Of a DNA stretch of 64,000 nt, positions 681 through 31,561 are shown one piece after another. Origin of the DNA: an uncultured Actinomycetes bacterium. GTDB lineage: Bacteria > Actinomycetota > Thermoleophilia > Gaiellales > Gaiellaceae. Within the stretch, counting starts at the first letter, position 1; each line of letters starts with the position of its first letter. Both the position numbers and the translations under genes were made by a program. Location: contig CAVTCN010000023.1 in the NCBI GenBank assembly GCA_963733215.1, forward strand, positions 2,935 through 66,934, written 5' to 3'. The notes under the pieces were generated by a model. The model saw only the letters and a program-made list of their open reading frames with translations. It did no database searches and was not told the DNA's origin.

Positions 681-766
681 TGCGGGCGGGAGGACTCGAA
701 CCTCCAAGAGGGTTTCCCCCCAACGGGACCTAAACCCGCCGCGTCTGCCAGTTCCGCCACGCCCGC
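681..766 (-). tRNA. tRNA-Leu (anticodon TAG), long variable arm
   Basis: Reverse complement reads GCGGGCG TG GCGG...GCGGG TTTAGGT CCCGT...GGAGG TTCGAGT CCTCC CGCCCGC A. Acceptor, anticodon and T arms all pair, with a TTCGAGT T-loop. No encoded CCA. Confidence 0.9.
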
Positions 767-804
767 CGCGATTAGAGGATAGATCGGCCGGGTAGGTAGA
801 GCGC

Positions 805-951
805 ATGACAGACCAGGCAGACCGCGAACGCGAGAGCCGCGAAAGCGACATCACGAAGTTCGAGGAGATCCGCCTCGAAGAGGAGGCCGAACGCGAGCGC
901 CTCACGGAGCGGGTTCAGGACGAGCAGCAGCCCGAGCAGAACGAGCCGTAG
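805..951 (+). CDS. hypothetical small acidic/charged protein (48 aa)
   Basis: ATG at 805 to TAG at 949-951 gives MTDQADRERESRESDITKFEEIRLEEEAERERLTERVQDEQQPEQNEP. GC3 is high, as in real genes here. It is below the ORF-track size cut-off. No recognisable family and a weak RBS. Confidence 0.3.
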   Translation: MTDQADRERESRESDITKFEEIRLEEEAERERLTERVQDEQQPEQNEP

Positions 952-1000
952 GCCAGGATGGCGCAGCGGGCGGCGGACCCTCGGCGACCGATAAGCGGAA

Positions 1001-1072
1001 TGGCCCCGGATGGAGTCGAACCATCGCACGCAGATTCGAAGTCTGCCGCTCTATCCACTGAGCTACGGGGCC
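1001..1072 (-). tRNA. tRNA-Arg (anticodon TCG)
   Basis: Reverse complement reads GGCCCCG TA GCTC AGTGGATA GAGC G GCAGA CTTCGAA TCTGC GTGC GATGG TTCGACT CCATC CGGGGCC A. This is a canonical cloverleaf. Confidence 0.9.
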
Positions 1073-1094
1073 GGTTCGGTCAGAGTAGCGCCCG

Positions 1095-1478
1095 ATGGAC
1101 ACGGAATCCGCAGCCCGGCGCTGGCGCGAGACGTGGCTCCGGTCGTGGCCTTCGAAGGACGTAGGCGCGATCGCGGCGCTGTACGCGCCCGGGGCGCGCT
1201 TCCGGTCGCAGCCGTTCCGCGACCTGCAGGAACCGCGAGCGTACGCCGAGTGGGCGTTCTCCGAACAGGACGAGGCCGAGGTCTGGTTCGGCGAGCCGAT
1301 CGTCTCCGGTGACCGTGCGACGTGCGAGTACTGGGGCGTCGTCTCGTTCCAGGGCAGGGACGAGACGATCGCCGGCGTTGCAGTGATCCGCTTCGACGCC
1401 AACGGGCTCGTCAGCGACCAGCGCGACTACTGGAACGCCGAAGAAGGGCGGCGCGAGCCGCCGGAGGGTTGGGGCTAG
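1095..1478 (+). CDS. SnoaL/NTF2-like fold small protein
   Basis: 127-aa ORF with the pattern typical of SnoaL-like/DUF4440 proteins (W..AW...D...I..LYAPGA.F...P). High GC3. TGA/ATG-type 4-nt overlap with the convergent neighbour. Confidence 0.7.
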   Translation: MDTESAARRWRETWLRSWPSKDVGAIAALYAPGARFRSQPFRDLQEPRAYAEWAFSEQDEAEVWFGEPIVSGDRATCEYWGVVSFQGRDETIAGVAVIRFDANGLVSDQRDYWNAEEGRREPPEGWG

Positions 1479-2287
1479 ATCGCGTTGGGCGGGCGCTCAC
1501 CGCGCTCGACCGCCAGCAGGTTGTCGACCAGCACGCGCGTCATCGCCTCGCGCGTGTCCTCCGTAGCGGTGCCGAGATGCGGCGTCATGACGACGTTCTC
1601 GAGCTCATGGAGCTCCGGCGGGACGTCCGGCTCGTTGGCGAAGACGTCGAGCCCGGCCCGGAGCCGGCCGGAGACGAGCTCGGCGACGAGCGCGGGCTCG
1701 TCCACGACTTGACCGCGTGACGTGTTGACGAGACAGGCGCCGTCTCGCATCAGCGCCAGTCGGGGAGCGTCCATGAAGCCGCGCGTCTCATCCGTGAGCG
1801 GGACGTGGAGCGTGACGACGTCGGCCTGGCCGAGCAGCTCGTCCAGCGGCCGATACGCAGGGTCGTCGTCTGGCCTGCTGCGCGTGTAGAGGACCCGCAT
1901 CTCGAAGCCCCGCGCGCGCTGCGCGACCGCCCGCCCCGTTCGTCCGAGGCCGACGATCCCGAGCGTGGCGCCCGTGACCTCGTCGCCCTTGAGCGGCTCG
2001 TCGGCCCAGCCGCTCCCCCACCGGCCGGAGCGAACGACTCGGTCGCCGGCCGCGATCCGCCTCCGGACCGCGAGGATCAGGCCCATCGTCAGGTCGGCGG
2101 TCGCCGAGGCCGTGACGCCGGGGGTGTTCGTGACCGCGACGCCCCGCTCGCGGCAGGCATCCACGTCGACGAGGTCGTAGCCCGCGCCGTAGTTCGCAAC
2201 CAGCCTCAGGTTCGGGAAGCGATCGAGCGTCGCCCGGTTGACGTCCTCGGCGACGACGGCGAGCGCCTCGACGTCGTCGCGTGGCAT
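1475..2287 (-). CDS. D-isomer specific 2-hydroxyacid dehydrogenase (glyoxylate/hydroxypyruvate reductase-like)
   Basis: NAD-binding GxGxxG (GIVGLGRTGRAVAQRA) and catalytic-region motifs (LVNTSRG...DVF..EP...H...NVV.TPH). The in-frame upstream sequence LKVLASRRFPGPAWEEL looks like the true N-terminus. The start may therefore be a CTG at 2365, only 7 nt from tRNA-His. Confidence 0.85.
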   Translation of the reverse strand: MPRDDVEALAVVAEDVNRATLDRFPNLRLVANYGAGYDLVDVDACRERGVAVTNTPGVTASATADLTMGLILAVRRRIAAGDRVVRSGRWGSGWADEPLKGDEVTGATLGIVGLGRTGRAVAQRARGFEMRVLYTRSRPDDDPAYRPLDELLGQADVVTLHVPLTDETRGFMDAPRLALMRDGACLVNTSRGQVVDEPALVAELVSGRLRAGLDVFANEPDVPPELHELENVVMTPHLGTATEDTREAMTRVLVDNLLAVERGERPPNAI

Positions 2288-2372
2288 ACCAAGATCGCCG
2301 TACTCGACGTCCGCGAGCTCCTCCCATGCCGGGCCGGGGAAGCGGCGTGACGCGAGAACCTTCAGCGTGAGA

Positions 2373-2446
2373 GGTGGCGGAGGGGACTCGAACCCCCGAC
2401 CACCGGGACCACAACCCGGGGCTCTACCAACTGAGCTACCGCCACC
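2373..2446 (-). tRNA. tRNA-His (anticodon GTG) with genomically encoded G-1
   Basis: Reverse complement reads G GTGGCGG TA GCTC AGTTGGTA GAGC C CCGGG TTGTGGT CCCGG TGGTC GGGGG TTCGAGT CCCCT CCGCCAC C. The extra 5' G lies opposite discriminator C, as is typical of bacterial tRNA-His. Confidence 0.9.
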
Positions 2447-2449
2447 GCG

Positions 2450-3035
2450 CTAGGCCAAGGATAGCTGCGCCTTCCCGAACGTCAGCGCGCGGACCGGCGC
2501 CTGCGAGAACTCTTCGACCAGTGTCTTGCAGAACGCCGGGAGATCGTCCGGGTCTCGGCTGGAGATCAGTCCGTCGTCCACGACGACCTCCCGGTCCACC
2601 CAGCTGCCGCCCGCGTTCTCGACGTCGGTCCGGATCGACGGGAACGAAGTCAGCGTCCGGTCACGGACGACGTCCGCCTCGACGAGCGTCCACGGGCCGT
2701 GGCAGATCACGGCGACCGGCTTGCCCGACTCGACGAAGGTCCGCGCGAAGCGCACGGCGTCCTCGTTGGACCGGAGCGTGTCCGGGTTGCCGACCCCACC
2801 GGGGAGCACGAGCCCGTCGTAGTCGTCTGCGGTGACTTCGCTCACGACCCGGTCGACCTGGAACGTGTTCGGCCTTGTCGTAGTGGTCGAAGCCCTGGAT
2901 CTCGCCCTCCTCGAGCGAGACGAGCTCCGGCGTGCCGCCCGCCTCCTCGACCGCCTTCCACGGCTCCGTCAGCTCCACCTGCTCGACCATGTCGGTCGCG
3001 AGAAACGCAATCTTCTTACCGGTCAGCTCGGCCAT
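2450..3035 (-). pseudogene. DJ-1/PfpI family protein, reading frame broken once
   Basis: N-terminal part (ORF 2661..3035, [34 protein letters not shown]...[10 protein letters not shown]). C-terminal part (ORF 2450..2845, preceded in frame by FQVDRV, then [21 protein letters not shown]...VAVICHGPW). Together they form one PfpI-like protein in two frames. The junction is at about 2862-2870. Confidence 0.8.
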
Positions 3036-3103
3036 GTCCCCTCCTCGGTTGGTCTGCTGCGAGGCCTACCCGGAATGCCCCGGCGCTACGCTTTGGGCAA
3101 CGG

Positions 3104-3175
3104 GCGCCCGTAGCTCAGTGGAAGAGCAGCGGACTTCTAATCCGCGGGTCGGAGGTTCGAATCCTCCCGGGCGCG
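3104..3175 (+). tRNA. tRNA-Arg (anticodon TCT)
   Basis: GCGCCCG TA GCTC AGTGGAA GAGC A GCGGA CTTCTAA TCCGC GGGTC GGAGG TTCGAAT CCTCC CGGGCGC G. Confidence 0.9.
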
Positions 3176-3190
3176 TGCGGTACGAGGGGC

Positions 3191-3463
3191 TTACGTGTCG
3201 ACGTCGGGGTCGATCTCGTCCGCGCGCTGCGCTCTCGCTTCGGCCGCCTCGCGCTCACGGCGGGCGAGATCGGCCTGCTCCTGCGCTTCCGCCTGCCGCT
3301 GCTTGGCCTCCTCCGCTTGCTCGTCTGCGCCACGCCGAAGCTCGTGGGCCTCTTCGCGACGCCCCTCGAGCTTCCGCTCGCGGGCGCGGCGGCCGCCGAA
3401 CAGGAGGACGGCGAGCACGACGATCGCGGCGATCACGATCAGCACGATGATCCAGGTATCCAT
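3191..3463 (-). CDS. small membrane-anchored protein with charged coiled-coil tail (90 aa)
   Basis: Internal ATG (3463) of track ORF 3191..4126. Sequence is MDTWIIVLIVIAAIVVLAVLLFGG followed by an R/E/A-rich helix. The upstream part of that track ORF is antisense shadow of the CAP gene. Confidence 0.55.
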   Translation of the reverse strand: MDTWIIVLIVIAAIVVLAVLLFGGRRARERKLEGRREEAHELRRGADEQAEEAKQRQAEAQEQADLARREREAAEARAQRADEIDPDVDT

Positions 3464-3504
3464 GCTGCTTCCCCTTCCCCGCTCGGCGAGCGGCAAACGC
3501 GAAG

Positions 3505-4122
3505 CTAGCCGCGGGAGCCGAAGTCGGCGGTCAGGATCGTGACCGCTCGGCCGCCGTACTCGCCCGGCGCGCCCGCGAAGAAGACCGCGCCGATCCCTAC
3601 CTCGCGCCAATTGCGCGACAGCATGTTCTGGCGGTGCGACGGGCTGTTCATCCACTCGCGGACGGCGAAACCGGCGTCGTAGGTGTCGCTGCCCCAGAGC
3701 AAGTTCTCGCCGACCGTCCACGAGCGGAAGCCCCTCGAGGGATAGAAGCGCTCGATTCGCCGCCAGAACTGGGCGCCGCTGAGCGAGTCGTGCTCGAAGT
3801 ACCCGCGGCGGCCCATGTCCTTCGAGTGGAAGACGGCCGCGGCGCGAAGACGGCGGCTCGGACGGAGCGGCCGAAGCCCGTGAGACCGTCGCACGATGTT
3901 CATCCGCACGACGACCGAGCTCTCCAGCACCGCCATCGCCGCACGTGCTCCACCTCGCTGCGGCGCGGACGTGCGCGCCGGCGCTGCGGCCACGGCTGTG
4001 CTCTTCAGCTGGGCGTGGACGAGGGTGCGGACTCCTTGGGAAACGGCTGCCTCGCTTTGTCCGACCGCGAGGGCGGCTGCAAGCGCAACGACGGCGGCCA
4101 CCAGTGCCATACCCCTCCGCAT
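3505..4122 (-). CDS. secreted CAP/SCP (YkwD-like) domain protein
   Basis: Signal-peptide-like start MRRGMALVAAVVALAAALAVG. CAP motifs HS.DM....YF.H.S..G..F..R.......GENL.WG and W..SP.H..N.L...W.E.G.G. The start was chosen at the ATG at 4122 inside the longer track ORF. Confidence 0.8.
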   Translation of the reverse strand: MRRGMALVAAVVALAAALAVGQSEAAVSQGVRTLVHAQLKSTAVAAAPARTSAPQRGGARAAMAVLESSVVVRMNIVRRSHGLRPLRPSRRLRAAAVFHSKDMGRRGYFEHDSLSGAQFWRRIERFYPSRGFRSWTVGENLLWGSDTYDAGFAVREWMNSPSHRQNMLSRNWREVGIGAVFFAGAPGEYGGRAVTILTADFGSRG

Positions 4123-4184
4123 GCACTCGATATCGGCCTGCACCGCCCGATGGGCGTCACTCGTGCCAGGGATTCTTCGGTTCG

Positions 4185-5255
4185 CTAGACGGGGGCAGTT
4201 TCGCGCGAACCGCGTTCGCGGCGGCCGCGGAGCCAGGCCAGGAGCAAGACCTGGATCGTCCCCGCGACCGGAATGGCCGCCAGCGCGCCGAGGATGCCCG
4301 CGATCTTCGCGCCGATCAGCACGGAAACGAGGATCGCGAGCGGCGAGAGCTGCACCGTTCGGCTGTAGACGAGCGGCTGGAGGAGGTGGTTCTCGACCTG
4401 CTGGTAGACGATCATGAACGCGAGCACGATGATCCCCGCCGGGATCGAGGTCAGGAACGCGACGGCGGTCAGGATGATCGCGGCGAGGGTGGCGCCGGCG
4501 AGCGGAATCAGGTCGAGGATCGCCACCAACAAGCCAAGTGCGACCGCGTACGGCACGTCCAGGATCAGCAGCACGATCGTCGAGCTGACGCCCGCGATGA
4601 CGCTGATCAGCAGGTTGCCGGTCACGTAGCCGCCGACCGTCCGGTAGATCTCGGAGCCGATTCCGCGCCACTTCTCCTGCGACCCCTCCGGCAGCAGTCC
4701 GTAGAACCGCTCCATCCACCGCGGGCCTTCCAGGAGCATGAAGAACGTCATGAACGCGATCGTGACGACCGCGACGATGAACGTGATCACGCTCTGGGTG
4801 ACCGCGAGCGCTGTGTCGGAGAGACCGAGGACGCTCGAAGCGTCGCCGCCCTGGACGGCGTCGCGCACCCGCTCATCGATCTCGTAGCGCTCGACGAGCT
4901 CGCCGAGCGGCCCCCGCCCCTCCGAGACGTCGTTCACGTAGTCCGGCAGCTCGTCCGCAAACCCCGTGGCCTCGTCGACGAGGGTCGGGATGAAGAGCGA
5001 GCCGGCAGCGACCATCACCCCGAGCGCGAGCAGCGAGGTGATTGCGGTCGCGAGGCCGCGCCGCAAGCCGCGCCGCTCGAACGCCTCCACGGCCGGGTTC
5101 AGCGCCAGCGCCAGGAAGATCGCGACGACGATCCACGTGAGCACCTGGCGCGAGATCCAGGTGACGTAGAGCAGGAGGAGAAAGGCGAAGGTGAGCCCGA
5201 GAACGGCCAGGACCGTGGTCGGGCGAATGCGGACGATCCGCTCTTCGGCGGGCAC
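4185..5255 (-). CDS. AI-2E family transporter (PerM/UPF0118)
   Basis: Polytopic protein with the family-typical C-terminal half ([48 protein letters not shown]...[20 protein letters not shown]). The start was placed at GTG 5255 ([14 protein letters not shown]...). Further upstream the track ORF overlaps the divergent gene. Confidence 0.85.
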
Positions 5256-5300
5256 CGCGCAAGGATCGCGGCACGGTCGGACGTTTCGGTCGGTCCCGGC

Positions 5301-5612
5301 ATGGTGAAATGGAGCGGCATGAGCCTTCGCGGGACCCCGATCGAACAGGAGGCCGAGCTGCCCGACGGCCGGGTCTTCCTCGTCCGGGTCGGTGTGCTCG
5401 ACGACTCGTACGTCGCGCGACGCGAGATCCAGACGGTGGCACTCGAGCTCGTCGAGGACGGCCAGGTGGCCGCGTCGGTGAACACCGTGCTCGGCCCCGA
5501 GCACGAGAGCGAGGCGCGCGCGCTCGCCCGGGAGGTCGCGGACAGGCTCGCGTCCGGCGATCTGGAGCCGACGGCGGGAGCGCTCGAGCCACTGGCGGAC
5601 ACGATCCGATGA
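5301..5612 (+). CDS. hypothetical protein (103 aa), translationally coupled to the PPIase
   Basis: Tail of track ORF 3945..5612 from ATG 5301 ([44 protein letters not shown]...). High GC3. ATGA stop/start overlap with the next gene. No family recognised. Confidence 0.5.
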
Positions 5613-6121
5613 GGCAGGCCACTCTTCACACGAGCGAAGGGGCGATCGAGCTCGAGCTCTATCCGAATGAAGCTCCCAAGACGGTCGAGAACTTCGTGAA
5701 GCTCGCCCGCGACGGCTTCTACGAGGGCGTCATCTTCCATCGGGTGATTCCCGACTTCATGATCCAGGGCGGCGATCCGACCGGCACCGGGACGGGCGGC
5801 CCGGGCTACGAGTTCGAGGACGAGTTCAACGAGCACCGCGTCGTCCGTGGTGCGCTCGCCATGGCCAACGCCGGGCCGAACACGAACGGGAGCCAGTTCT
5901 TCATCGTCACTGCCGAGGCGACGCCGTGGCTGGACGGGAAGCACACGGTCTTCGGCAAGGTGACGTCGGGGATGGACGTGGTCGACCGGATCGCGGAGGC
6001 CGAGCGAGACGACAACGACCGGCCTGCCAGCCCCGTCGCGATCGAGCGCGTCGAGCTGCCACAGACGACAGAACTAGCCTCGTACGCGTCAGAGCGGGCG
6101 GCGGGAATCGAACCCGCATAA
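5609..6121 (+). CDS. cyclophilin-type peptidyl-prolyl cis-trans isomerase
   Basis: [73 protein letters not shown]...[19 protein letters not shown] is a textbook cyclophilin. The last ~29 nt overlap tRNA-Gly on the opposite strand. Confidence 0.9.
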
Positions 6122-6163
6122 CTAGCTTGGAAGGCTAGGGCTCTACCATTGAGCTACGCCCGC
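6093..6163 (-). tRNA. tRNA-Gly (anticodon TCC)
   Basis: Reverse complement reads GCGGGCG TA GCTC AATGGTA GAGC C CTAGC CTTCCAA GCTAG TTAT GCGGG TTCGATT CCCGC CGCCCGC T. Confidence 0.9.
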
Positions 6164-6252
6164 GCGCCGGACTAGCGTAGCGCTCGATCTCCCGCCCAGA
6201 TCCCTACTCCTGGACCGTCCACCCGGAGGCGACGCTCGCCGTCGCCGCGCTC

Positions 6253-6951
6253 GTGCTCGCCTACGTCCTCCTGACGCGCGGTGAGCAGGTCGAGCGGTGG
6301 CGCATGGCCGCTTTCGGCACCGGCTGCCTGCTGCTCCTCGCTACCGCGGTCACGCCGCTCGAGGCGCTGAGCTACCACCTGCTCTCGATGCACCTGCTCC
6401 AGAACGTGATCCTCGCGGAGTGGGCGCCGGCGCTCCTCGTCCTGGGCATCCCGCCGTCCGTCGCCGAGCGGCTCGCGCGCGTGCCGGCCGTCCGGCTGCT
6501 CACCCGGCCGCCGGTCGCGCTCGTCCTCTGGCTCCTCGTCTACTTCGCCTGGCACCTGCCGCGCGCCTACGACGCGGCGCTGGAGCATCCGGCGACTCTG
6601 CTCCACCTGGAGCACGCCATGTACCTCGGCGCCGGGGCGCTGCTCTGGTGGCCGGTGCTCCAGGACGCGCCGCATCACCTCTCGAACGCGGCCCGAGCGC
6701 TCTACCTGTTCCTCGCGTTCATCCTCGCGAGCCCGATCGGGCTGCTCCTGGCGCTGGCGCCCGAAGCGGTCTACGACTACTACGTCGAGGGCGGCGGGCT
6801 CTGGGGGCTCGGCGCGCATGCCGACCAGCAGCTCGCGGGCGTGACGATGGCGACGGAGCAGGCGATCGTCTTCTTCGCCGTCTTCGCGATCTTCTTCTTC
6901 CGGTTCCTCGCCGACGAGGAGAACGTCCAGTCCCCGGCCGGCACCAAATAG
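6253..6951 (+). CDS. ctaG: cytochrome c oxidase assembly factor CtaG-like membrane protein (caa3_CtaG family)
   Basis: Multi-TM protein with HLLQNV...EW.P.LL..G and HLEHAMYLGAGALLWWPV motifs. In-frame conserved-looking residues (PYSWTVHPEATLAVAAL) lie upstream of the GTG at 6253. They run back to a TAG at 6178-6180 with no canonical start between. Confidence 0.7.
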   Translation: MLAYVLLTRGEQVERWRMAAFGTGCLLLLATAVTPLEALSYHLLSMHLLQNVILAEWAPALLVLGIPPSVAERLARVPAVRLLTRPPVALVLWLLVYFAWHLPRAYDAALEHPATLLHLEHAMYLGAGALLWWPVLQDAPHHLSNAARALYLFLAFILASPIGLLLALAPEAVYDYYVEGGGLWGLGAHADQQLAGVTMATEQAIVFFAVFAIFFFRFLADEENVQSPAGTK

Positions 6952-6966
6952 GCCGTTCGGCCTATT
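6947..6966 (+). terminator. hairpin overlapping the ctaG stop codon
   Basis: AATAGGCCG TT CGGCCTATT forms 9-nt perfect arms. As RNA this is an 8-bp stem with a GUUC loop, followed by GCAAUU. Confidence 0.4.
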
Positions 6967-7004
6967 GCAATTCGCAAGCAAGGCTGACAGCGTTGGACGT
7001 AGCG

Positions 7005-7388
7005 ATGCCGGTGCCGCAGCTCGCCTCAGCCCAGCAGGACCTGGTCCAGGAGACCCTCCTCGGAGAGGCGCTCGAGCATGGACCGTTCGGCGCCATCGTT
7101 CTCGACGAAGAGGGCAGATATCTCGCCGCGAACAGGCTGGCCTGCAAGCTCTCGGGCTACACGCGTAAGGAGCTGCTCGAGGGCGGCGCAAAGGCGCTCT
7201 CCTTCGAGCCCTCGGGCGCCGAAGTGACGATGCACCAGATGGCGGTGGGTGACCTTCAGGCAGGGACTGCGGACCTGAAGCGCAAGGACGGCACCGGCAT
7301 CACGTGCGAGTACCGCCTCGGCCCAACGCGAAGCGGCGGAATGCCGTTCTTCATCGTCATCTTCTGGGAGCGGAGCGAAACGGACTAG
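7005..7388 (+). CDS. stand-alone PAS domain protein (127 aa)
   Basis: ATG 7005 inside track ORF 6297..7388. Sequence LVQETLLGEALEHGPFGAIVLDEEGRYLAANRLACKLSGYTRKELL...DLKRKDGTGITCEYRL fits the PAS fold pattern. The stop abuts the 3' end of tRNA-Pro. Confidence 0.7.
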   Translation: MPVPQLASAQQDLVQETLLGEALEHGPFGAIVLDEEGRYLAANRLACKLSGYTRKELLEGGAKALSFEPSGAEVTMHQMAVGDLQAGTADLKRKDGTGITCEYRLGPTRSGGMPFFIVIFWERSETD

Positions 7389-7462
7389 TCGGGACGGCCG
7401 GATTCGAACCGGCGGCCTCCCGCTCCCAAAGCGGGCGCGCTACCAGGCTGCGCCACGTCCCG
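7389..7462 (-). tRNA. tRNA-Pro (anticodon TGG)
   Basis: Reverse complement reads CGGGACG TG GCGC AGCCTGGTA GCGC G CCCGC TTTGGGA GCGGG AGGCC GCCGG TTCGAAT CCGGC CGTCCCG A. Confidence 0.9.
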
Positions 7463-26528: not shown

Positions 26529-27734
26529 ATGAAGCAGGCCTGGCCCGCGTCGATCACGGGAGTGGAGGGGTTCGCCGCCGGTGGCAGCGTCCTCGAGCAC
26601 AAGTTCGGTCAGGGCGAGCCGTACACGCTCGGCGTCGAGGAGGAGTACATGCTGCTGGACGGCGAGAGCTTCGACCTCGTCCAGCGGATCGACACGGTTC
26701 TGGCCGCGTTCGTCGGCCACGAGGACGAGGCGCGGATGAAGCCGGAGCTCATGCAGTCCACCCTCGAGGTCGCCACGCCCGTCTGCCGGACCGCCGCCGA
26801 AGCCGACCGCGAGCTTCGCCGCCTCAGGTCGGCCGTCAAGCAGATCGCGGGTGAGAACGGCCTGCGGATGGGCTCGGCCGGGACGCACCCGTTCAGCCTC
26901 TTCGAGCGCCAGCGGATCACCGCGCGCGACCGGTACCGCGCCCTCGTCGACCAGATGCAGTACGTCGCCCGCCGCGAGCTGATCTTCGGGCTCCACGTCC
27001 ACGTGGCCGTGGACGATCCGGACAAGGCGATCCACGTCGTCAACGGCCTGCTCGTCGACCTGCCGCTGCTGATGGCGCTCTCGGCGAGCTCGCCGTTCTG
27101 GCGCGGCGAGCCGACCGGCCTCGCCTCCACGCGCCAGCCGATCTTCGCGGCCTTCCCACGGTCGGGACCGCCCCCGCGCTTCCGCGACTACGAGGACTAC
27201 GCGGCCGTCGTCGGGCAGCTCGAGAAGACCGGCTGCATCGCCGACTACACGCACATCTGGTGGGACATCCGGCCCCATCCACGGCTCGGCACCGTGGAGA
27301 TCCGGATCTGCGACTGCGTCACCCGCGTCGAGGACGCCGTCGCGATCGCCGCGTTCTGCCAGGCGCTCGTGAAGCACTACTGCGAGCTGGCGGAGCAGGA
27401 GGGCGGGATCCCCGGCTACCACCGGATCCTGACCACCGAGAACAAGTGGCTCTCGGTGCGGTACGGGCTCGAGGCGCCGATCATGGACCTCAACACGGGC
27501 GCGAGAAACCGCATCGCCGTCGCCCAGCTGGTGCGCCGCCGCCTCGAGGAGATCGAGCCGCACGCGAAGGAGCTCGGCTCCGACAGCGAGCTGGAAGGCA
27601 TCCAGGAGATCCTGAGCAGAGGGAACGGCTCCGATCGCCAGCTGCGCGTCTACAACGCCAATCGCGACATCGTCGAGGTCGTCCGCGAGATCGCGGACGC
27701 CACCGAGGCCGGCGGCACCGCCGCGTCTGGCTGA
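26529..27734 (+). CDS. carboxylate-amine ligase, YbdK type (glutamate-cysteine ligase family 2)
   Basis: TLGVEEEYMLLD...ELMQSTLEVAT.VC......REL..LR...GTHPF...LIFGLHVHV.V.D....I.V.N.L....P.L.ALSA.SPFW.G..TG..S.R are GCS2 hallmark blocks. Confidence 0.9.
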   Translation: MKQAWPASITGVEGFAAGGSVLEHKFGQGEPYTLGVEEEYMLLDGESFDLVQRIDTVLAAFVGHEDEARMKPELMQSTLEVATPVCRTAAEADRELRRLRSAVKQIAGENGLRMGSAGTHPFSLFERQRITARDRYRALVDQMQYVARRELIFGLHVHVAVDDPDKAIHVVNGLLVDLPLLMALSASSPFWRGEPTGLASTRQPIFAAFPRSGPPPRFRDYEDYAAVVGQLEKTGCIADYTHIWWDIRPHPRLGTVEIRICDCVTRVEDAVAIAAFCQALVKHYCELAEQEGGIPGYHRILTTENKWLSVRYGLEAPIMDLNTGARNRIAVAQLVRRRLEEIEPHAKELGSDSELEGIQEILSRGNGSDRQLRVYNANRDIVEVVREIADATEAGGTAASG

Positions 27735-27860
27735 ACGGGCATAGCCCGTTCCGCGTCGAACGTTCAGAGTACGACCATGGCTCGGGACCTCCTGTCATCC
27801 GAGGCTCGTACATCTGACGATGAGCCTCCACGACGCCAGCGTTCGCACCGGAATCGCGCC

Positions 27861-28403
27861 ATGGCCGCGTTGCAGGCCGACGAGCGCGCCTGGATCGCGG
27901 GGGCACAGGCGGGGTCGCTACCGGATCTCGAGGCCCTGTTCCGGGAGCACTGGCCCCGCGCCTACCGGGCCGCGTACCTGGTCGTGCACGACGGCGCCGC
28001 GGCCGAGGACATTGCACAGGAGGCGATGCTGTCCGCGATCCGGACGCTCGACCGGTTCGACCGGCGGCGTCCGTTCGGGCCGTGGCTGCACCGGATCGTC
28101 GTCAACCGGGCCATCGACTGGGCGCGGGCCAGGGAGCTGCAGGCCGCGGTCGGCGAGCCCGCGCTGGAACTTGCAGCGCCCGGGCGCTCCGACGAGGCAT
28201 CCCTCACTCAGCCCCTCGTTGCCGCCCTCGGCGAGCTGTCGCCCGAGCACCGCGCCGTGATCGTCCTCCGGCACCTGCTGGAGTACTCGCCGCGCGAGAT
28301 CGCTCGCATGCTCGACCTCCCACGGGGCACCGTGAACTCCCGGCTCCGCCGCGGCCTGAACGCGCTGGCCGACCGGCTCGAGATCGACGAGGACACGCTG
28401 TGA
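27861..28403 (+). CDS. ECF-type RNA polymerase sigma factor
   Basis: Region 2 (LFREHWPRAYRAAYLVVHDGAAAEDIAQEAML...FGPWLHRIVVNRAID). Region 4 (LSPEHRAVIVLRHLLEYSPREIARMLDLPRGTVNSRLRRG). Start at ATG 27861. Confidence 0.88.
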   Translation: MAALQADERAWIAGAQAGSLPDLEALFREHWPRAYRAAYLVVHDGAAAEDIAQEAMLSAIRTLDRFDRRRPFGPWLHRIVVNRAIDWARARELQAAVGEPALELAAPGRSDEASLTQPLVAALGELSPEHRAVIVLRHLLEYSPREIARMLDLPRGTVNSRLRRGLNALADRLEIDEDTL

Positions 28404-29597
28404 CCGAGGTCCAGCTCCGACGCGCGCTGCTCCGCATCCAGCCGCCGGATGAGCTCGGGGCCACCCGCCGCTCGTGGCAGCTGGCGCGCGCCGCGTTCGA
28501 CGAACGGGAGCCGACTCCGTGGCCGAGGCGTCACGCGCGGCTGCTGCTCGCGACCGCCGTGGCGATCGCGCTCCTCGCCGCCGTCCTGAGCCCGCCGGGC
28601 CGGGCCGTGATCTCGGACGTCCGTGAGGCAATGGGAAAGGAAGAGGTCGCCGCCGTGCCGCAGGCGAGGCCCGCGGCTTTCTCGCTGCCCGCGGAGGGAC
28701 GCGTGCTCGTCACGGCGCCGAGCGGCGTCTGGGTCGTGCAGGCGAACGGCACCAAGCGGCGGCTCGGCGACTTCGACGAGGCGTCGTGGTCGCCCGGCGG
28801 ACTGGCCGTCGCCTCGGCCCGGAGCCGGCTCGCCGCCTTCAACCCGACGGGAGAGGCCCGGTGGACACTCGCCCGGCCCCGCGTCCACGACGCGCGCTGG
28901 TCGCCGAGCGGGTCGCTGATCGCCTACCTGAGCGGATCGAACCTCCGTGTGGTCGCGGCCGACAAGACCGGCGACCGGCGAGTCGACGGCGCCGCCGACG
29001 TCGCTCCCGCCTGGCGGCCGGGCGAGCAGCAGCGTCGTGGCGTACGTCGACGCCGGCGGCGCGCTGACGGTGCGGGACACCGACACGGATGACACGCTCT
29101 GGACCTCCGCCGTTCGGGCCACGCCGTCGCACCTCGAGTGGTCGGCGGACGGACGGCGACTCGTCGCAGCCGTGCCGCTCTCGGAGAACCGGTTCGCCAT
29201 CACCGTCTACGACGAGACCGGCCGCCGCCTCCAGTCGCTCCCCCTCGCGGGCACCTTCGTGGACGCAGCCTTCACGCCCGACGACCACCGCATCGCGCTC
29301 ATCCGCCGGCAACGAGCCGAGGACGGCGAGACGAGTGAGCTCCTCGTCGTCGACGCGGACAGCATCCGCCGCCAGACGCCCGTCTTCAGCGGCCGCGGCC
29401 GTTTTGGCGACGTCGCGTGGTCGCCCGGCGCGCGCTGGCTGCTCCTGGGCTGGCAGAGCGCCGACCAGTGGCTCTTCATCCGGTCGACGGCTGTGGAGAA
29501 GATCAAGGCCGTGTCGAGCCTGGCGCAGCAGTTCGACCCGGGCGGGACCGGCGTCGGGCCGTTTCCACGGATCGAAGGCTGGTGCTGCGGGGGTTAG
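28400..29597 (+). pseudogene. putative anti-sigma factor: single TM plus extracytoplasmic TolB/PD40-like beta-propeller, frame broken once
   Basis: GTGA overlap with the sigma gene. TM LLLATAVAIALLAAVL. Repeated WSP.G....A motifs (ASWSPGGLAVA, ARWSPSGSLIAY, LEWSADGRRLV, VAWSPGARWLL). The frame changes between WRPG and SSSVVAYVDAGG at about 29019-29036. Confidence 0.7.
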
Positions 29598-29606
29598 TCT
29601 CCGGCG

Positions 29607-30077
29607 GTGCTCGCGACCGGTGATCGGATCCCCGACGTCGACGTCTGGCTCGCGCCGCGCGAGGGGGTCTCGCTCCACGACCTGGTCTCCGAGGGCGCGA
29701 TCCTCGTTCTCTTCTACCTCTTCGACTGGTCGGGCACCTGAACGAACGAGATGGAGCTCCTGCGTGACAGGAGCAAGGAGTTCGAGGATGCGGGCGTGCG
29801 GATCATGGCGGCCTCGCGCGACTCGGCGTGGTCGCACGTCGCCTGGATCCAGGCGCTCGACCTGAACTTCCCGCTGCTCTCGGACTGGAACGGCGACGCC
29901 GTCCGCGGCTTCGGGATCGCGCGGGACTACCGGGGGATGAAGGACGTCGCGCAGCGGTCCGCCTTCCTCGTCGATACCGACGGTACGGTCCGCGGCGCAT
30001 GGGCCTACGAGGACGGCGACGTTCCGGACGTGGACGAGCTGCTCGCGGCCGCGCGGGCCTTGTCGGGCTCGTCCTAG
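29607..30077 (+). CDS. AhpE/Bcp-like 1-Cys peroxiredoxin with in-frame TGA (29739-29741) at the peroxidatic position; candidate selenoprotein
   Basis: From GTG 29607: MLATGDRIPDVDVWLAPREGVSLHDLVSEGAILVLFYLFDWSGT-TGA-TNEMELLRDRSKEFEDAGVRIMAASRDSAWSHVAWIQALDLNFPLLSDW...AFLVDTDGTVRGAW. The track only lists the part after the TGA (29751..30077). The TGA aligns with the Cys of the Prx motif (F)TxxC(T/Q)xE. Confidence 0.7.
29743..29784 (+). promoter_or_regulatory. candidate bacterial SECIS element
   Basis: Lower stem CGAAC (29743-47) pairs with GUUCG (29780-84). Upper stem GCUCCUG (29756-62) pairs with CAGGAGC (29768-74). Apical loop CGUGA contains GU. The structure starts 2 nt after the UGA, and the loop G is about 25 nt from the UGA. 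Confidence 0.45.
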
Positions 30078-31561
30078 CGCTCTACCTCGGCGCAGGCCTC
30101 GTCTCGACGTGGCCGGCGCTGGAAGACGCCCGGTCGGACTTCCTCGCCGAGGGGTTGCCGGGCCTGCCCGGCGCCGCGGCTCCCGGCGACCATCTCCAGG
30201 TCGCGTGGCAGCTCTGGCTCCCGGGGCACCAGCTCGGGCGCGGAGCCGCTCCGTGGCTCGATCCCTACAGCTTCCAGCCCGAGGTCGAAGCGCGCGTCAA
30301 CTTCGCCGCCTGGCCGTTCGGCGTCGTCTTCGGGCCGCTGAAGGGCGCTGTTCGGGACGGTCGTCGCGTGGAACCTCTTCGTGCTGCTCGGCTACCTCGG
30401 GGCCGGGGGCCTGACGTTCCTCTGGCTCCGGTCGCTCGGGCTCGGCGTCGGCCCCTCGCTCGCCGGCGGCCTGATCTTCGCGCTCGCGCCGTACCGCGCC
30501 GTCCAGGCAGGCGCCGGGCACCTGCTCGCGTGGATCGCGATGCTGCTTCCTCTGTCCCTCTGGGCGTGGGAGAAGCGCCTGTACTGGCTGACCGCGGCCG
30601 CGCTTGCGTCGATTCCCCTGTCGGGCCAAGTGCACCTGGCGCTTGGTGCGCTGCCGTTCGTCTTCGCCTATGCACTGCTGCGTGGCGGCGACCGGCGCTG
30701 GGCCGGCGGGCGCCCTCGCGGCAGGTCTGGCCGCCGGCGTCCTCGTCTGGGCGGTCTCGATCCGCGGCTCGATCGGCTCATCGCGCTCGTTCGCCCAGGT
30801 CGAGCGCTACTCGGCCGAGCTGGCGGACTTCGTGTCGCGGGATCCGCGCCACGGGCTGGAGGCGTTCGTCTTCGTCGGCTGGCTCGTGCCGCTTCTGGCG
30901 CTCCTCGGGGTCGTGGTGCATCGCCGCACAAGGCTCGGTCTCCTCCTCGGAGTCGCGGCGCTGCTGCCGATGATCCTCGCCCTCGGCGCCAACCTTCCCG
31001 GCTACGAGACGCTCTGGGAGACGGTTCCCGGCCTCGACGTGACCCGGGTGCCGGGCCGGCTGATGGTCATCGCCTGCCTCGCGCTGGCGGGGCTCGCGGC
31101 GCTCGGACTGGAGTGGGTGCTGCAAGAGAAGCGCAGGCTCTTGGTCGTCGGCGCGGCGCTGGCGCTCGCTCGCGATCGACCTCCGCGCCGGGGTGACGGC
31201 CTACCGGCCCACCGCCGCGGACGAGGGGAATCGCGCGTACGCGGCGCTGCGGCAGGAGGACGGCGGGCGCCTGCTCGAGATGCCCGTCTACGCGCCCGAC
31301 CGCCAGGAAGCGAGCGTCTATCTCTACTACGCCATGCAGGCGCCGCGCGAGCGGCCGGCCGGCTACTCGACGGTCGCGCCGAAAGAGGCGGCCCGCGTCC
31401 TGCGGGAGCTCCAGCCGTGCGCCGACGTGCGCAGCCTCGCCGAGCTCGGCGTCCGGTACCTCGCCGTCTACGGCCGGCCGCGGTGCGGCGTGGCCGGGCG
31501 GCTGCTCGCCCGCGACGGGCCAATCGCGCTCTACGAAGCCTTCATACCCGTAGCCTGGTAG
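29999..31561 (+). pseudogene. large polytopic membrane protein (possible GT-C-type glycosyltransferase), three frame breaks
   Basis: Four consecutive ORF pieces read as one protein. Piece 1: MGLRGRRRSGRG..LVGLVLALYLGAGLVSTWPALEDARSDFL..GDHLQVAWQLWLPGH..AAWPFGVVFGPLKGA. Piece 2: GTVVAWNLFVLLGYLGAGGLTFLWL..LPFVFAYALLRGG. Piece 3: AGALAAGLAAGVLVWAV..LMVIACLALAGLAALGLEW..AALALA. Piece 4: IDLRAGVTAYRP..ALYEAFIPVAW. Junctions are at about 30344-30356, 30685-30710 and 31163-31175. The function call is weak. Confidence 0.55.

Follow-up and report, generated by a model that had tools for sequence, protein, structure and literature searches.

Positions 29607-30077 of a 64,000-nucleotide stretch of contig CAVTCN010000023.1 (assembly GCA_963733215.1), from an uncultured member of the Gaiellaceae and hereafter referred to as the window, very probably constitute one functional selenoprotein gene which encodes a small AhpE/Bcp-like peroxiredoxin (Prx) and in which an internal UGA codon would be read as selenocysteine (Sec). 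The initial annotation, made from the nucleotide sequence of the window alone, had proposed a candidate selenoprotein at this locus, and the proposal is now supported by the conservation of the TGA and of the frame on both sides of it, by homologues that carry cysteine (Cys) at the same position, by a hairpin that is specific to the Sec forms, and by the presence of selA, selB and tRNA-Sec in the Gaiellaceae. The features by which selenoproteins are recognized on comparative grounds, namely a conserved TGA, Cys homologues, a downstream hairpin and decoding machinery in the same family, can all be recognized in the sequences compared, and the gene thus appears to be a genuine clade-wide selenoprotein gene which has been shortened by annotation pipelines.

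The interrupted peroxiredoxin frame and its homologues

A single frame extends from a GTG start codon at 29607 to a TAG stop codon at 30075-30077 on the forward strand, its sole interruption being the TGA at 29739-29741, and re-examination placed the frame, the TGA and the adjacent hairpin at exactly the coordinates of the initial annotation. Read through the TGA, the complete coding sequence (CDS) specifies 156 residues, with Sec predicted at codon 45, Ser42 at position -3 relative to it, a conserved Arg117 and no cysteine at all, while the list of open reading frames (ORFs) for the locus holds two pieces, 29607-29741 (44 amino acids, aa) and 29751-30077 (108 aa). When the translation was compared with Pfam, with Cys put at the TGA position, the AhpC-TSA model (PF00578) matched residues 5-129 and so spanned the TGA (E 2.7e-24, 85.9 bits against a cut-off of 26); the Redoxin model also matched. 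A family profile aligned the TGA with Cys45 of Mycobacterium tuberculosis AhpE (1xxu; …aftgiCqgeldqlrdh) and with the peroxidatic Cys of the Aeropyrum pernix Bcp protein (2cx3), in agreement with the earlier assertion that the TGA occupies the place of the catalytic Cys. The codon of Arg117, the putative active-site arginine (29955-29957, in …AQRSAFLVD…), corresponds to an invariant column of the family which aligns with the conserved arginine of both 2cx3 and 1xxu.

TGA is also an ordinary stop codon in this DNA, where it terminates 14 of the 41 ORFs well supported by G+C content at third codon positions, and a genome-wide reassignment of the codon can therefore be dismissed. The remaining ORFs of this set end in TAG (24) or TAA (3); TGA is normally the dominant stop codon in actinobacterial genomes of 70% G+C, and such TAG-rich usage is unusual. 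Three other in-frame TGA candidates in the window were dropped as they represented gene junctions or antisense frames, leaving only the Prx site.

Protein database searches returned two classes of entry: dozens of 105-108 aa entries which cover only the part after the TGA at 81-98% identity, several of them named Gaiellaceae bacterium, and full-length homologues of 152-159 aa with approximately 56-66% identity. At the nucleotide level the aligned codon was TGA in 81 of the 82 loci of a first set, which had been collected by a metagenome scan and from ENA and NCBI contigs (59-97% identity), and in approximately 72 of the 77 loci returned by a scan in which each GTDB species was represented by one genome, with identity ranging down to about 52%. 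Nearly all of these 77 loci belong to metagenome-assembled genomes (MAGs) titled Gaiellaceae, Gaiellales, Thermoleophilia or 'uncultured Actinomycetes', and TGC was encountered among close relatives in two loci only, L039 and L114. The resulting 138 distinct TGA-bearing gene sequences share 52-97% protein identity, and not one of them contains a further stop codon or a frameshift within the 40 codons before and the 99 codons after the TGA. About 150 independent contigs, which represent many species and both short- and long-read projects, carry the same TGA. The orthologues share the start M/V-L-x-x-G-D-R-I-P, and FYLFDWS-x-T immediately precedes the TGA in nearly all 138 sequences. The ratio of non-synonymous to synonymous divergence (pN/pS) was 0.69 upstream and 0.64 downstream of the TGA, indicating that both parts diverge alike; as these values derive from raw p-distances and are saturated (about 0.65 everywhere), they show only that the two regions behave in the same manner. 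The ATG at 29751, at which gene callers start the downstream piece, corresponds to Met in just 57% of the orthologues and otherwise to Leu or Phe, and many orthologues lack a start codon near this position, so that the stand-alone 108-aa ORF has no conserved start.

The search for Cys/Sec pairs which the initial annotation had recommended proved fruitful, as full-length homologues (P0001, P0003, P0021, P0024 and others) have Cys in the TGA column, within the peptide …FDWS[AS][TS]CTNELELLRDR…. The codon concerned was found to be TGC in the DNA of L039, L114 and L163-169, and the full-length Cys forms (…FDWS[AS]TCTNELELLRDR…) reside in the same gene order as the Sec forms, comprising beta-lactamase, RidA, GCS2 and Prx genes. 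In P0072, a full-length homologue from the database, the catalytic position is occupied by Arg (…FVWSSTRTDELERLRDR…), which could reflect a change from TGA to CGA or a variant without activity.

Two further observations concern the distribution of the gene. A 3.5 kb contig carrying the TGA-containing gene together with a typical selenocysteine insertion sequence (SECIS) is assigned to a MAG labelled Pseudomonadota (L131, JBLNEO010000126.1), which is most likely to be explained by mis-binning of a Gaiellales contig and not by horizontal transfer; no close Prx homologue was present in the plasmid collection searched. In L096 (9542-13780), and also in L102, L016 and L026, the resident Sec-Prx gene is split by an insert of approximately 3.7 kb, located some five codons upstream of the TGA at a site corresponding to approximately 29723-29732 of the window. 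The insert carries, in the opposite orientation, a second complete Sec-Prx gene (L096 10001-10468) as well as a gene for a ClpB/ClpC-like AAA+ chaperone (L096 10585-13302; AAA_2 1.7e-69), while the remnant beside it retains the TGA, the SECIS and a C-terminal part near-identical to that of the window. The insert may represent a stress-gene cassette, or else the outcome of recombination at the ultra-conserved SECIS stretch.

With regard to the protein itself, matches to solved peroxiredoxins span its entire sequence, and the closest solved structure is the A. pernix Bcp protein 2cx3 (4.6e-19 with the sequence, 9.9e-29 with the profile), followed by 3hjp and 2ywn, and M. tuberculosis AhpE ranks after these three archaeal Bcp structures with an end-to-end match (3e-12 and 6e-20, respectively). 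The designation 'AhpE-like' in the initial annotation consequently requires qualification: the match to AhpE extends over the entire length of the protein, but the nearest solved relatives are of the archaeal dimeric Bcp type, with AhpE coming next. AhpE (Rv2238c; 1xxu, 1xvw) resembles the window protein in its length of about 153 aa, in having the catalytic residue at position 45 followed by …EL..LRD, in lacking a resolving Cys and in its actinobacterial origin, and differs from it in possessing Cys and in keeping the PxxxTxxC motif. The archaeal Bcp/PrxQ proteins (Aeropyrum pernix 2cx3/2cx4, Sulfolobus Bcp4 3hjp and S. tokodaii 2ywn) provide the best structure matches and are of similar length, 2cx3 also sharing Ser at -3, whereas they are Cys enzymes of archaeal origin with Pro at -7. 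No conserved second Cys column is present across the family, which places it with the 1-Cys-type peroxiredoxins in having no resolving Cys, and some of the Cys forms retain Pro at -7.

A hairpin that follows the TGA and not the protein

The mRNA segment downstream of the UGA is predicted to form a two-tier SECIS-like hairpin within the CDS (29743-29784, forward strand), the lower stem of which pairs CGAAC (29743-47) with GUUCG (29780-84) and the upper stem GCUCCUG (29756-62) with CAGGAGC (29768-74), leaving the apical loop CGUGA (29763-67). The minimum free energy (MFE) structure of the 50 nucleotides (nt) from the UGA onwards is exactly this two-tier hairpin, at -16.2 kcal/mol, and the upper hairpin alone accounts for -12.3 kcal/mol; the stem-loop drawn in the initial annotation, including the GU within its loop, is thus reproduced. 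The hairpin begins 2 nt after the UGA, its 7-bp upper stem 14 nt and its loop 21 nt downstream, and the second and third positions of the loop are G and U. A bacterial SECIS is a hairpin located just 3' of the UGA with a G in its apical loop, and the present geometry fits this description. The reference element for SelB binding is the SECIS of Escherichia coli fdhF, the minimal upper stem of which begins 11 nt after the UGA; the window hairpin resembles it in being located in the CDS just 3' of the UGA and in having G and U in the apical loop, and differs from it in the distance of its 7-bp upper stem (14 nt as compared to 11 nt), in the loop CGUGA and in having no evident bulged U.

A further feature of this segment is the codon choice within the core CTCCTGCGTGACAGG (29757-29771), which comprises codons +6 to +10 after the TGA (L-L-R-D-R) and thereby most of the upper stem together with the apical loop. 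Among the 138 Sec forms codon +6 is CTC in 129 and CTT in 6 (elsewhere in the same genes CTC makes up 64% of Leu codons), codon +7 is CTG in all 138 (31% of Leu codons elsewhere), codon +8 is CGT in 137 (4.8% of Arg codons elsewhere), codon +9 is GAC in 136 (90% of Asp codons elsewhere), and codon +10 is AGG in 134 and AGA in 4 (AGG being 3.3% of Arg codons elsewhere). In four sequences CTT at +6 co-occurs with AGA at +10. Synonymous divergence (pS) amounts to 0.036 in the core as compared to approximately 0.46 over the remainder of the gene. Of 113 distinct sequences, 110 have the loop CGUGA and 98 include the core stem in their MFE structure. In an alignment of 69 distinct sequences the upper stem was 97% paired, with changes, some of them compensatory, from C-G to U-A (2), from G-C to C-G (2) and from U-A to U-G (17). 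Pairing of the lower stem amounted to 91%, and in four cases both partners had changed, from A-U to G-C; control registers obtained by sliding reached just 35-43% pairing.

The Cys forms show that this constraint is not imposed by the amino acid sequence. P0021 and P0024 possess the same ELLRDR, and at codons +6 to +10 use CTT CTC CGC GAC AGG and CTG CTG CGC GAC CGC, respectively, while the TGC-bearing loci L039 and L114 have CTC GTC CGC GAC followed by CGC or CGG. As Cys forms with identical amino acids employ other codons, the nucleotide constraint tracks the TGA rather than the protein. A hairpin of SECIS geometry therefore appears to be conserved beyond coding needs in the Sec forms and to be absent or degraded in the Cys forms. 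Orthologues that keep both the TGA and the hairpin, as sought by the initial annotation, are represented by 138 sequences with a near-invariant hairpin core, and its concern that relatives might carry the TGA with no conserved structure behind it did not materialize, since stem and loop are near-invariant in the Sec forms. The P0021 loci (L163-L168, 5001-5459) keep the rare AGG at +10, and a weakened CUUCU/AGGAAG hairpin is possible there, a pattern as would be expected of a SECIS decaying after conversion of Sec to Cys.

Decoding machinery and competing interpretations

Comparison of E. coli SelA with plasmid sequences identified a megaplasmid of Miltoncostaea oceani, a cultured species of the Thermoleophilia, on which selD, selA and selB are followed by tRNA-Sec. 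All of the Sec machinery of this organism is located on this 816-kb, non-mobilizable replicon (L162; NZ_CP064357.1, 592545-617717), with a gene for a rhodanese-domain protein close to the cluster. The SelB protein of Miltoncostaea as a query retrieved only Miltoncostaeales-type proteins, while a profile built from its matches and run against cluster representatives detected SelB in Thermoleophilaceae, Baekduia and unnamed soil lineages. A second profile, built from a soil-rich clade chosen on a rough SelB tree, recovered SelB proteins named Gaiellales bacterium (P0440, P0461 and P0462) and Gaiellaceae bacterium (P0538). In L171 and L176 the order of genes is selA, an O-methyltransferase gene, selB and tRNA-Sec; L177 likewise presents methyltransferase, selB and tRNA-Sec, the gene at the selA position being cut by the contig end, while selA and selB are adjacent in L178-L183 and L184 holds selB only. 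The Gaiellaceae tRNA-Sec, with anticodon TCA, was called by ARAGORN and scores 65.7-66.5 bits against Rfam RF01852, for which the cut-off is 47. The methyltransferase interposed between selA and selB (L171 7759-11841; L176 7780-11841) has a PF00891 domain and a dimerisation domain, tRNA-Sec in these two loci follows directly after selB, and their SelB is short (578-579 aa as compared to approximately 630 aa in many lineages); a second Gaiellales type has adjacent selA and selB genes and a SelB of 628-636 aa.

Machinery and peroxiredoxin are brought together in one genome by the MAG SMAG_U2432, in which SelB P0538 and tRNA-Sec lie on DASTYD010000127.1 (L170) and a TGA-containing Prx gene (L137) on DASTYD010000117.1. 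Two further SelB proteins named Gaiellales were traced to MAGs outside the list of Prx loci. The assembly ERZ25039494 contains a contig (contig_16813) which shares 98.0% identity with the window across 4.3 kb and includes its exact C-terminal ORF, as well as a contig with selA, selB and tRNA-Sec (contig_11839). Its treatment as a single MAG was ruled out because distinct Prx orthologues are present on two of its contigs (contig_12333 and contig_16813), from which it follows that it is a sample-level assembly and that the link it provides is to the same community and not to the same genome.

In the mechanism envisaged, UGA codon 45 would not serve as a stop; SelB carrying GTP and Sec-tRNA(Sec) would bind the mRNA hairpin that begins 2 nt after the UGA and deliver selenocysteine to the ribosome, as in the standard bacterial mechanism. 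Judged by peroxiredoxin chemistry, Sec45 would replace the peroxidatic Cys beside Ser42 and Arg117, and its selenolate would attack the hydroperoxide to yield a selenenic acid. As the protein has no cysteine it would need an external reductant, presumably a thiol system of the kind that serves AhpE and other 1-Cys peroxiredoxins.

A number of observations weigh against a selenoprotein at this locus. Searches of the window with E. coli SelA, SelB and SelD (tblastn) and with ARAGORN revealed no selA, selB, selD or tRNA-Sec, the tRNAs being six ordinary ones which form a loose cluster at 681-7462 (Leu, Arg-TCG, His, Arg-TCT, Gly and Pro), and the same searches across approximately 1.6 Mb of Prx-flanking loci likewise returned none of these genes. 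The machinery has thus been demonstrated only in relatives of the window organism, the sole link within one genome, that of SMAG_U2432, depends on metagenomic binning, and selD was not found in any of the Gaiellaceae loci fetched, which have flanks of at most 10 kb. All TGA carriers found are uncultured MAGs, and the canonical Pro at -7 (PxxxT/SxxC) is Leu in 100% of the Sec forms. As for the hairpin, folding of the window sequence by itself is not beyond chance (z = -1.46 for 65 nt, with 18 of 200 shuffled sequences equalling it), RNAalifold retained the upper core and shifted the lower stem by four bases, leaving the lower register ambiguous, and the stem is so constant that covariation is modest. 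Rfam at gathering thresholds detected in the whole window only the six ordinary tRNAs and offered no model for the hairpin, and a search of 29650-29900 at E values up to 10 yielded nothing relevant to it. A single-sequence fold is unremarkable for DNA of 70% G+C, so that the window alone proves nothing and it is the comparative evidence which does; from that evidence, the upper hairpin appears to be the only firmly defined part of the element.

One rival proposal has the UGA decoded without Sec, either by hairpin-stimulated near-cognate read-through that inserts Trp, Cys or Arg, or by insertion of Cys through the Sec machinery. That proposal draws on the lack of Sec-machinery genes in the window, on the failure to locate selD and on the Arg of P0072, yet selA, selB and tRNA-Sec do occur in this family, including one MAG that carries the TGA-containing Prx gene, the catalytic position works only with Cys or Sec and is strictly TGA or TGC in the homologues, and the hairpin has the geometry of a SelB-binding element with an invariant loop containing G and U; we accordingly consider decoding without Sec improbable. 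It is very improbable that the TGA is a true stop which separates a 44-aa peptide from a 108-aa fragment independently started at ATG 29751. Gene callers do produce exactly these two ORFs, and the dozens of 105-108 aa database entries are what such an arrangement would give, but this fragment would have neither the catalytic residue nor the first beta-strands of the fold, its ATG is Met in only 57% of orthologues, and the 44 upstream codons stay in frame and include the Prx motif FYLFDWSxT. The neighbouring genes of the window do show assembly-type defects, and might lead one to regard the locus as a pseudogene, or the TGA as a sequencing or assembly error of a TGC or TGT codon in a long-read assembly. 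Those defects, however, are indels, the same TGA recurs in about 150 independent contigs, and the gene is under purifying selection with a hairpin specific to the Sec form; this explanation carries a negligible probability for the window and is already refuted at the level of the family. The conserved TGA, the intact frame and the unconserved ATG together exclude sequencing error, pseudogene and two separate ORFs at that level, and the reading of the UGA as Sec in a functional peroxiredoxin gene accordingly remains the one we favour.

Genomic context and relation to known selenocysteine peroxiredoxins

The Prx gene of the window is preceded on the forward strand by a syntenic gene for glutamate-cysteine ligase family 2 (26529-27734; Pfam GCS2 2.9e-61), which is a neighbour in both Sec and Cys loci, by a gene for a sigma-70 factor of the extracytoplasmic function (ECF) type two genes upstream (27777-28403; Pfam Sigma70_r2 and r4), kept in L001, L002 and L172-175, and by a beta-propeller-like gene (28400-29597) which lies between the sigma factor gene and the Prx gene and ends 10 nt before the start of the latter. 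In the P0021 loci the Prx start is separated by 10 nt from the end of GCS2, and approximately 3.5 kb upstream there is a thioredoxin gene. A role of the peroxiredoxin in an oxidative-stress regulon, or its use of a gamma-glutamylcysteine-type thiol, is speculation suggested by these neighbours.

In the window, the genes on either side of Prx are each distributed over two or three frames. The beta-propeller-like gene occupies two frames (28082-29092 and 28947-29597), for the fragments of which Pfam returned no match, and is represented by one uninterrupted gene of 398 aa in L001/L002 and L096; on the downstream side, the gene at 30109-31561 is also frame-split and corresponds to a single 467-aa gene in L001. 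Alignment of the window with contig_16813 required six gap openings over 4.3 kb. The splits are probably indels of the long-read assembly, and the contention of the initial annotation that the other defects of the window are indels holds for both Prx neighbours, which are frame-split here and intact in relatives.

Peroxiredoxins with a T/SxxU motif are an established family of bacterial selenoproteins, of which 12 members were listed in 2006 (PMC1794560) and 91 members from 78 organisms in 2016 (PMC5029168). In a 2026 review (PMC13188914) Sec-Prx is listed as experimentally verified and PrxU of Eubacterium acidaminophilum serves as its reference, the founding report on PrxU, cited there, being that of Söhling et al. 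2001; BSepDB now covers 57,630 selenoproteins of 111 families from 64,000 genomes (PMC13326102). The window protein shares with the known Sec-Prx/PrxU proteins the AhpC/TSA fold (PF00578), S/T-x-x-U at the peroxidatic site, a SECIS in the coding region right after the UGA and the existence of Cys-form homologues. It differs from them in being shorter (156 aa), AhpE/Bcp-like rather than AhpC/Prx1-like, and cysteine-free, in having Leu in place of the canonical Pro, and in its occurrence in the Gaiellales/Thermoleophilia. No NCBIfam model matched the protein at its cut-off, and the PrxU equivalog model (NF040737) gave 40.6 bits against the 270 demanded. In full-text literature searches nothing relevant was found for selenocysteine or selenoprotein together with Gaiella or Thermoleophilia, nor any report of a Sec-containing AhpE for AhpE together with selenocysteine. 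The mechanism is the standard one and Prx is already a known selenoprotein family, while there is roughly an even chance that the proteins described here form an uncatalogued subfamily of cysteine-free '1-Sec' AhpE/Bcp-like peroxiredoxins, characterized by LxxxSxxU and a near-invariant SECIS and nearly fixed in the Gaiellales; they may already be listed in BSepDB or within the broad 'Prx' family of earlier surveys.

While the finding leaves knowledge of the Sec decoding mechanism itself unchanged, it has consequences for annotation, as hundreds of public entries are split into ORFs of 44 aa and 105-108 aa, and the conserved TGA together with the CTCCTGCGTGACAGG signature provides a simple rule by which such entries can be mended. 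It also extends the Sec trait to the Gaiellaceae/Gaiellales, in which selA, selB and tRNA-Sec are present and Sec is predicted to be used in an antioxidant enzyme. A peroxiredoxin in which Sec would be the only redox-active residue, and for which syntenic Cys forms exist, offers a natural comparison of Sec with Cys in catalysis. The Gaiellaceae and other Gaiellales are abundant aerobic soil actinobacteria, and if a 1-Sec subfamily is indeed what they possess, the peroxide defence of a dominant soil lineage would hinge on the supply of selenium.

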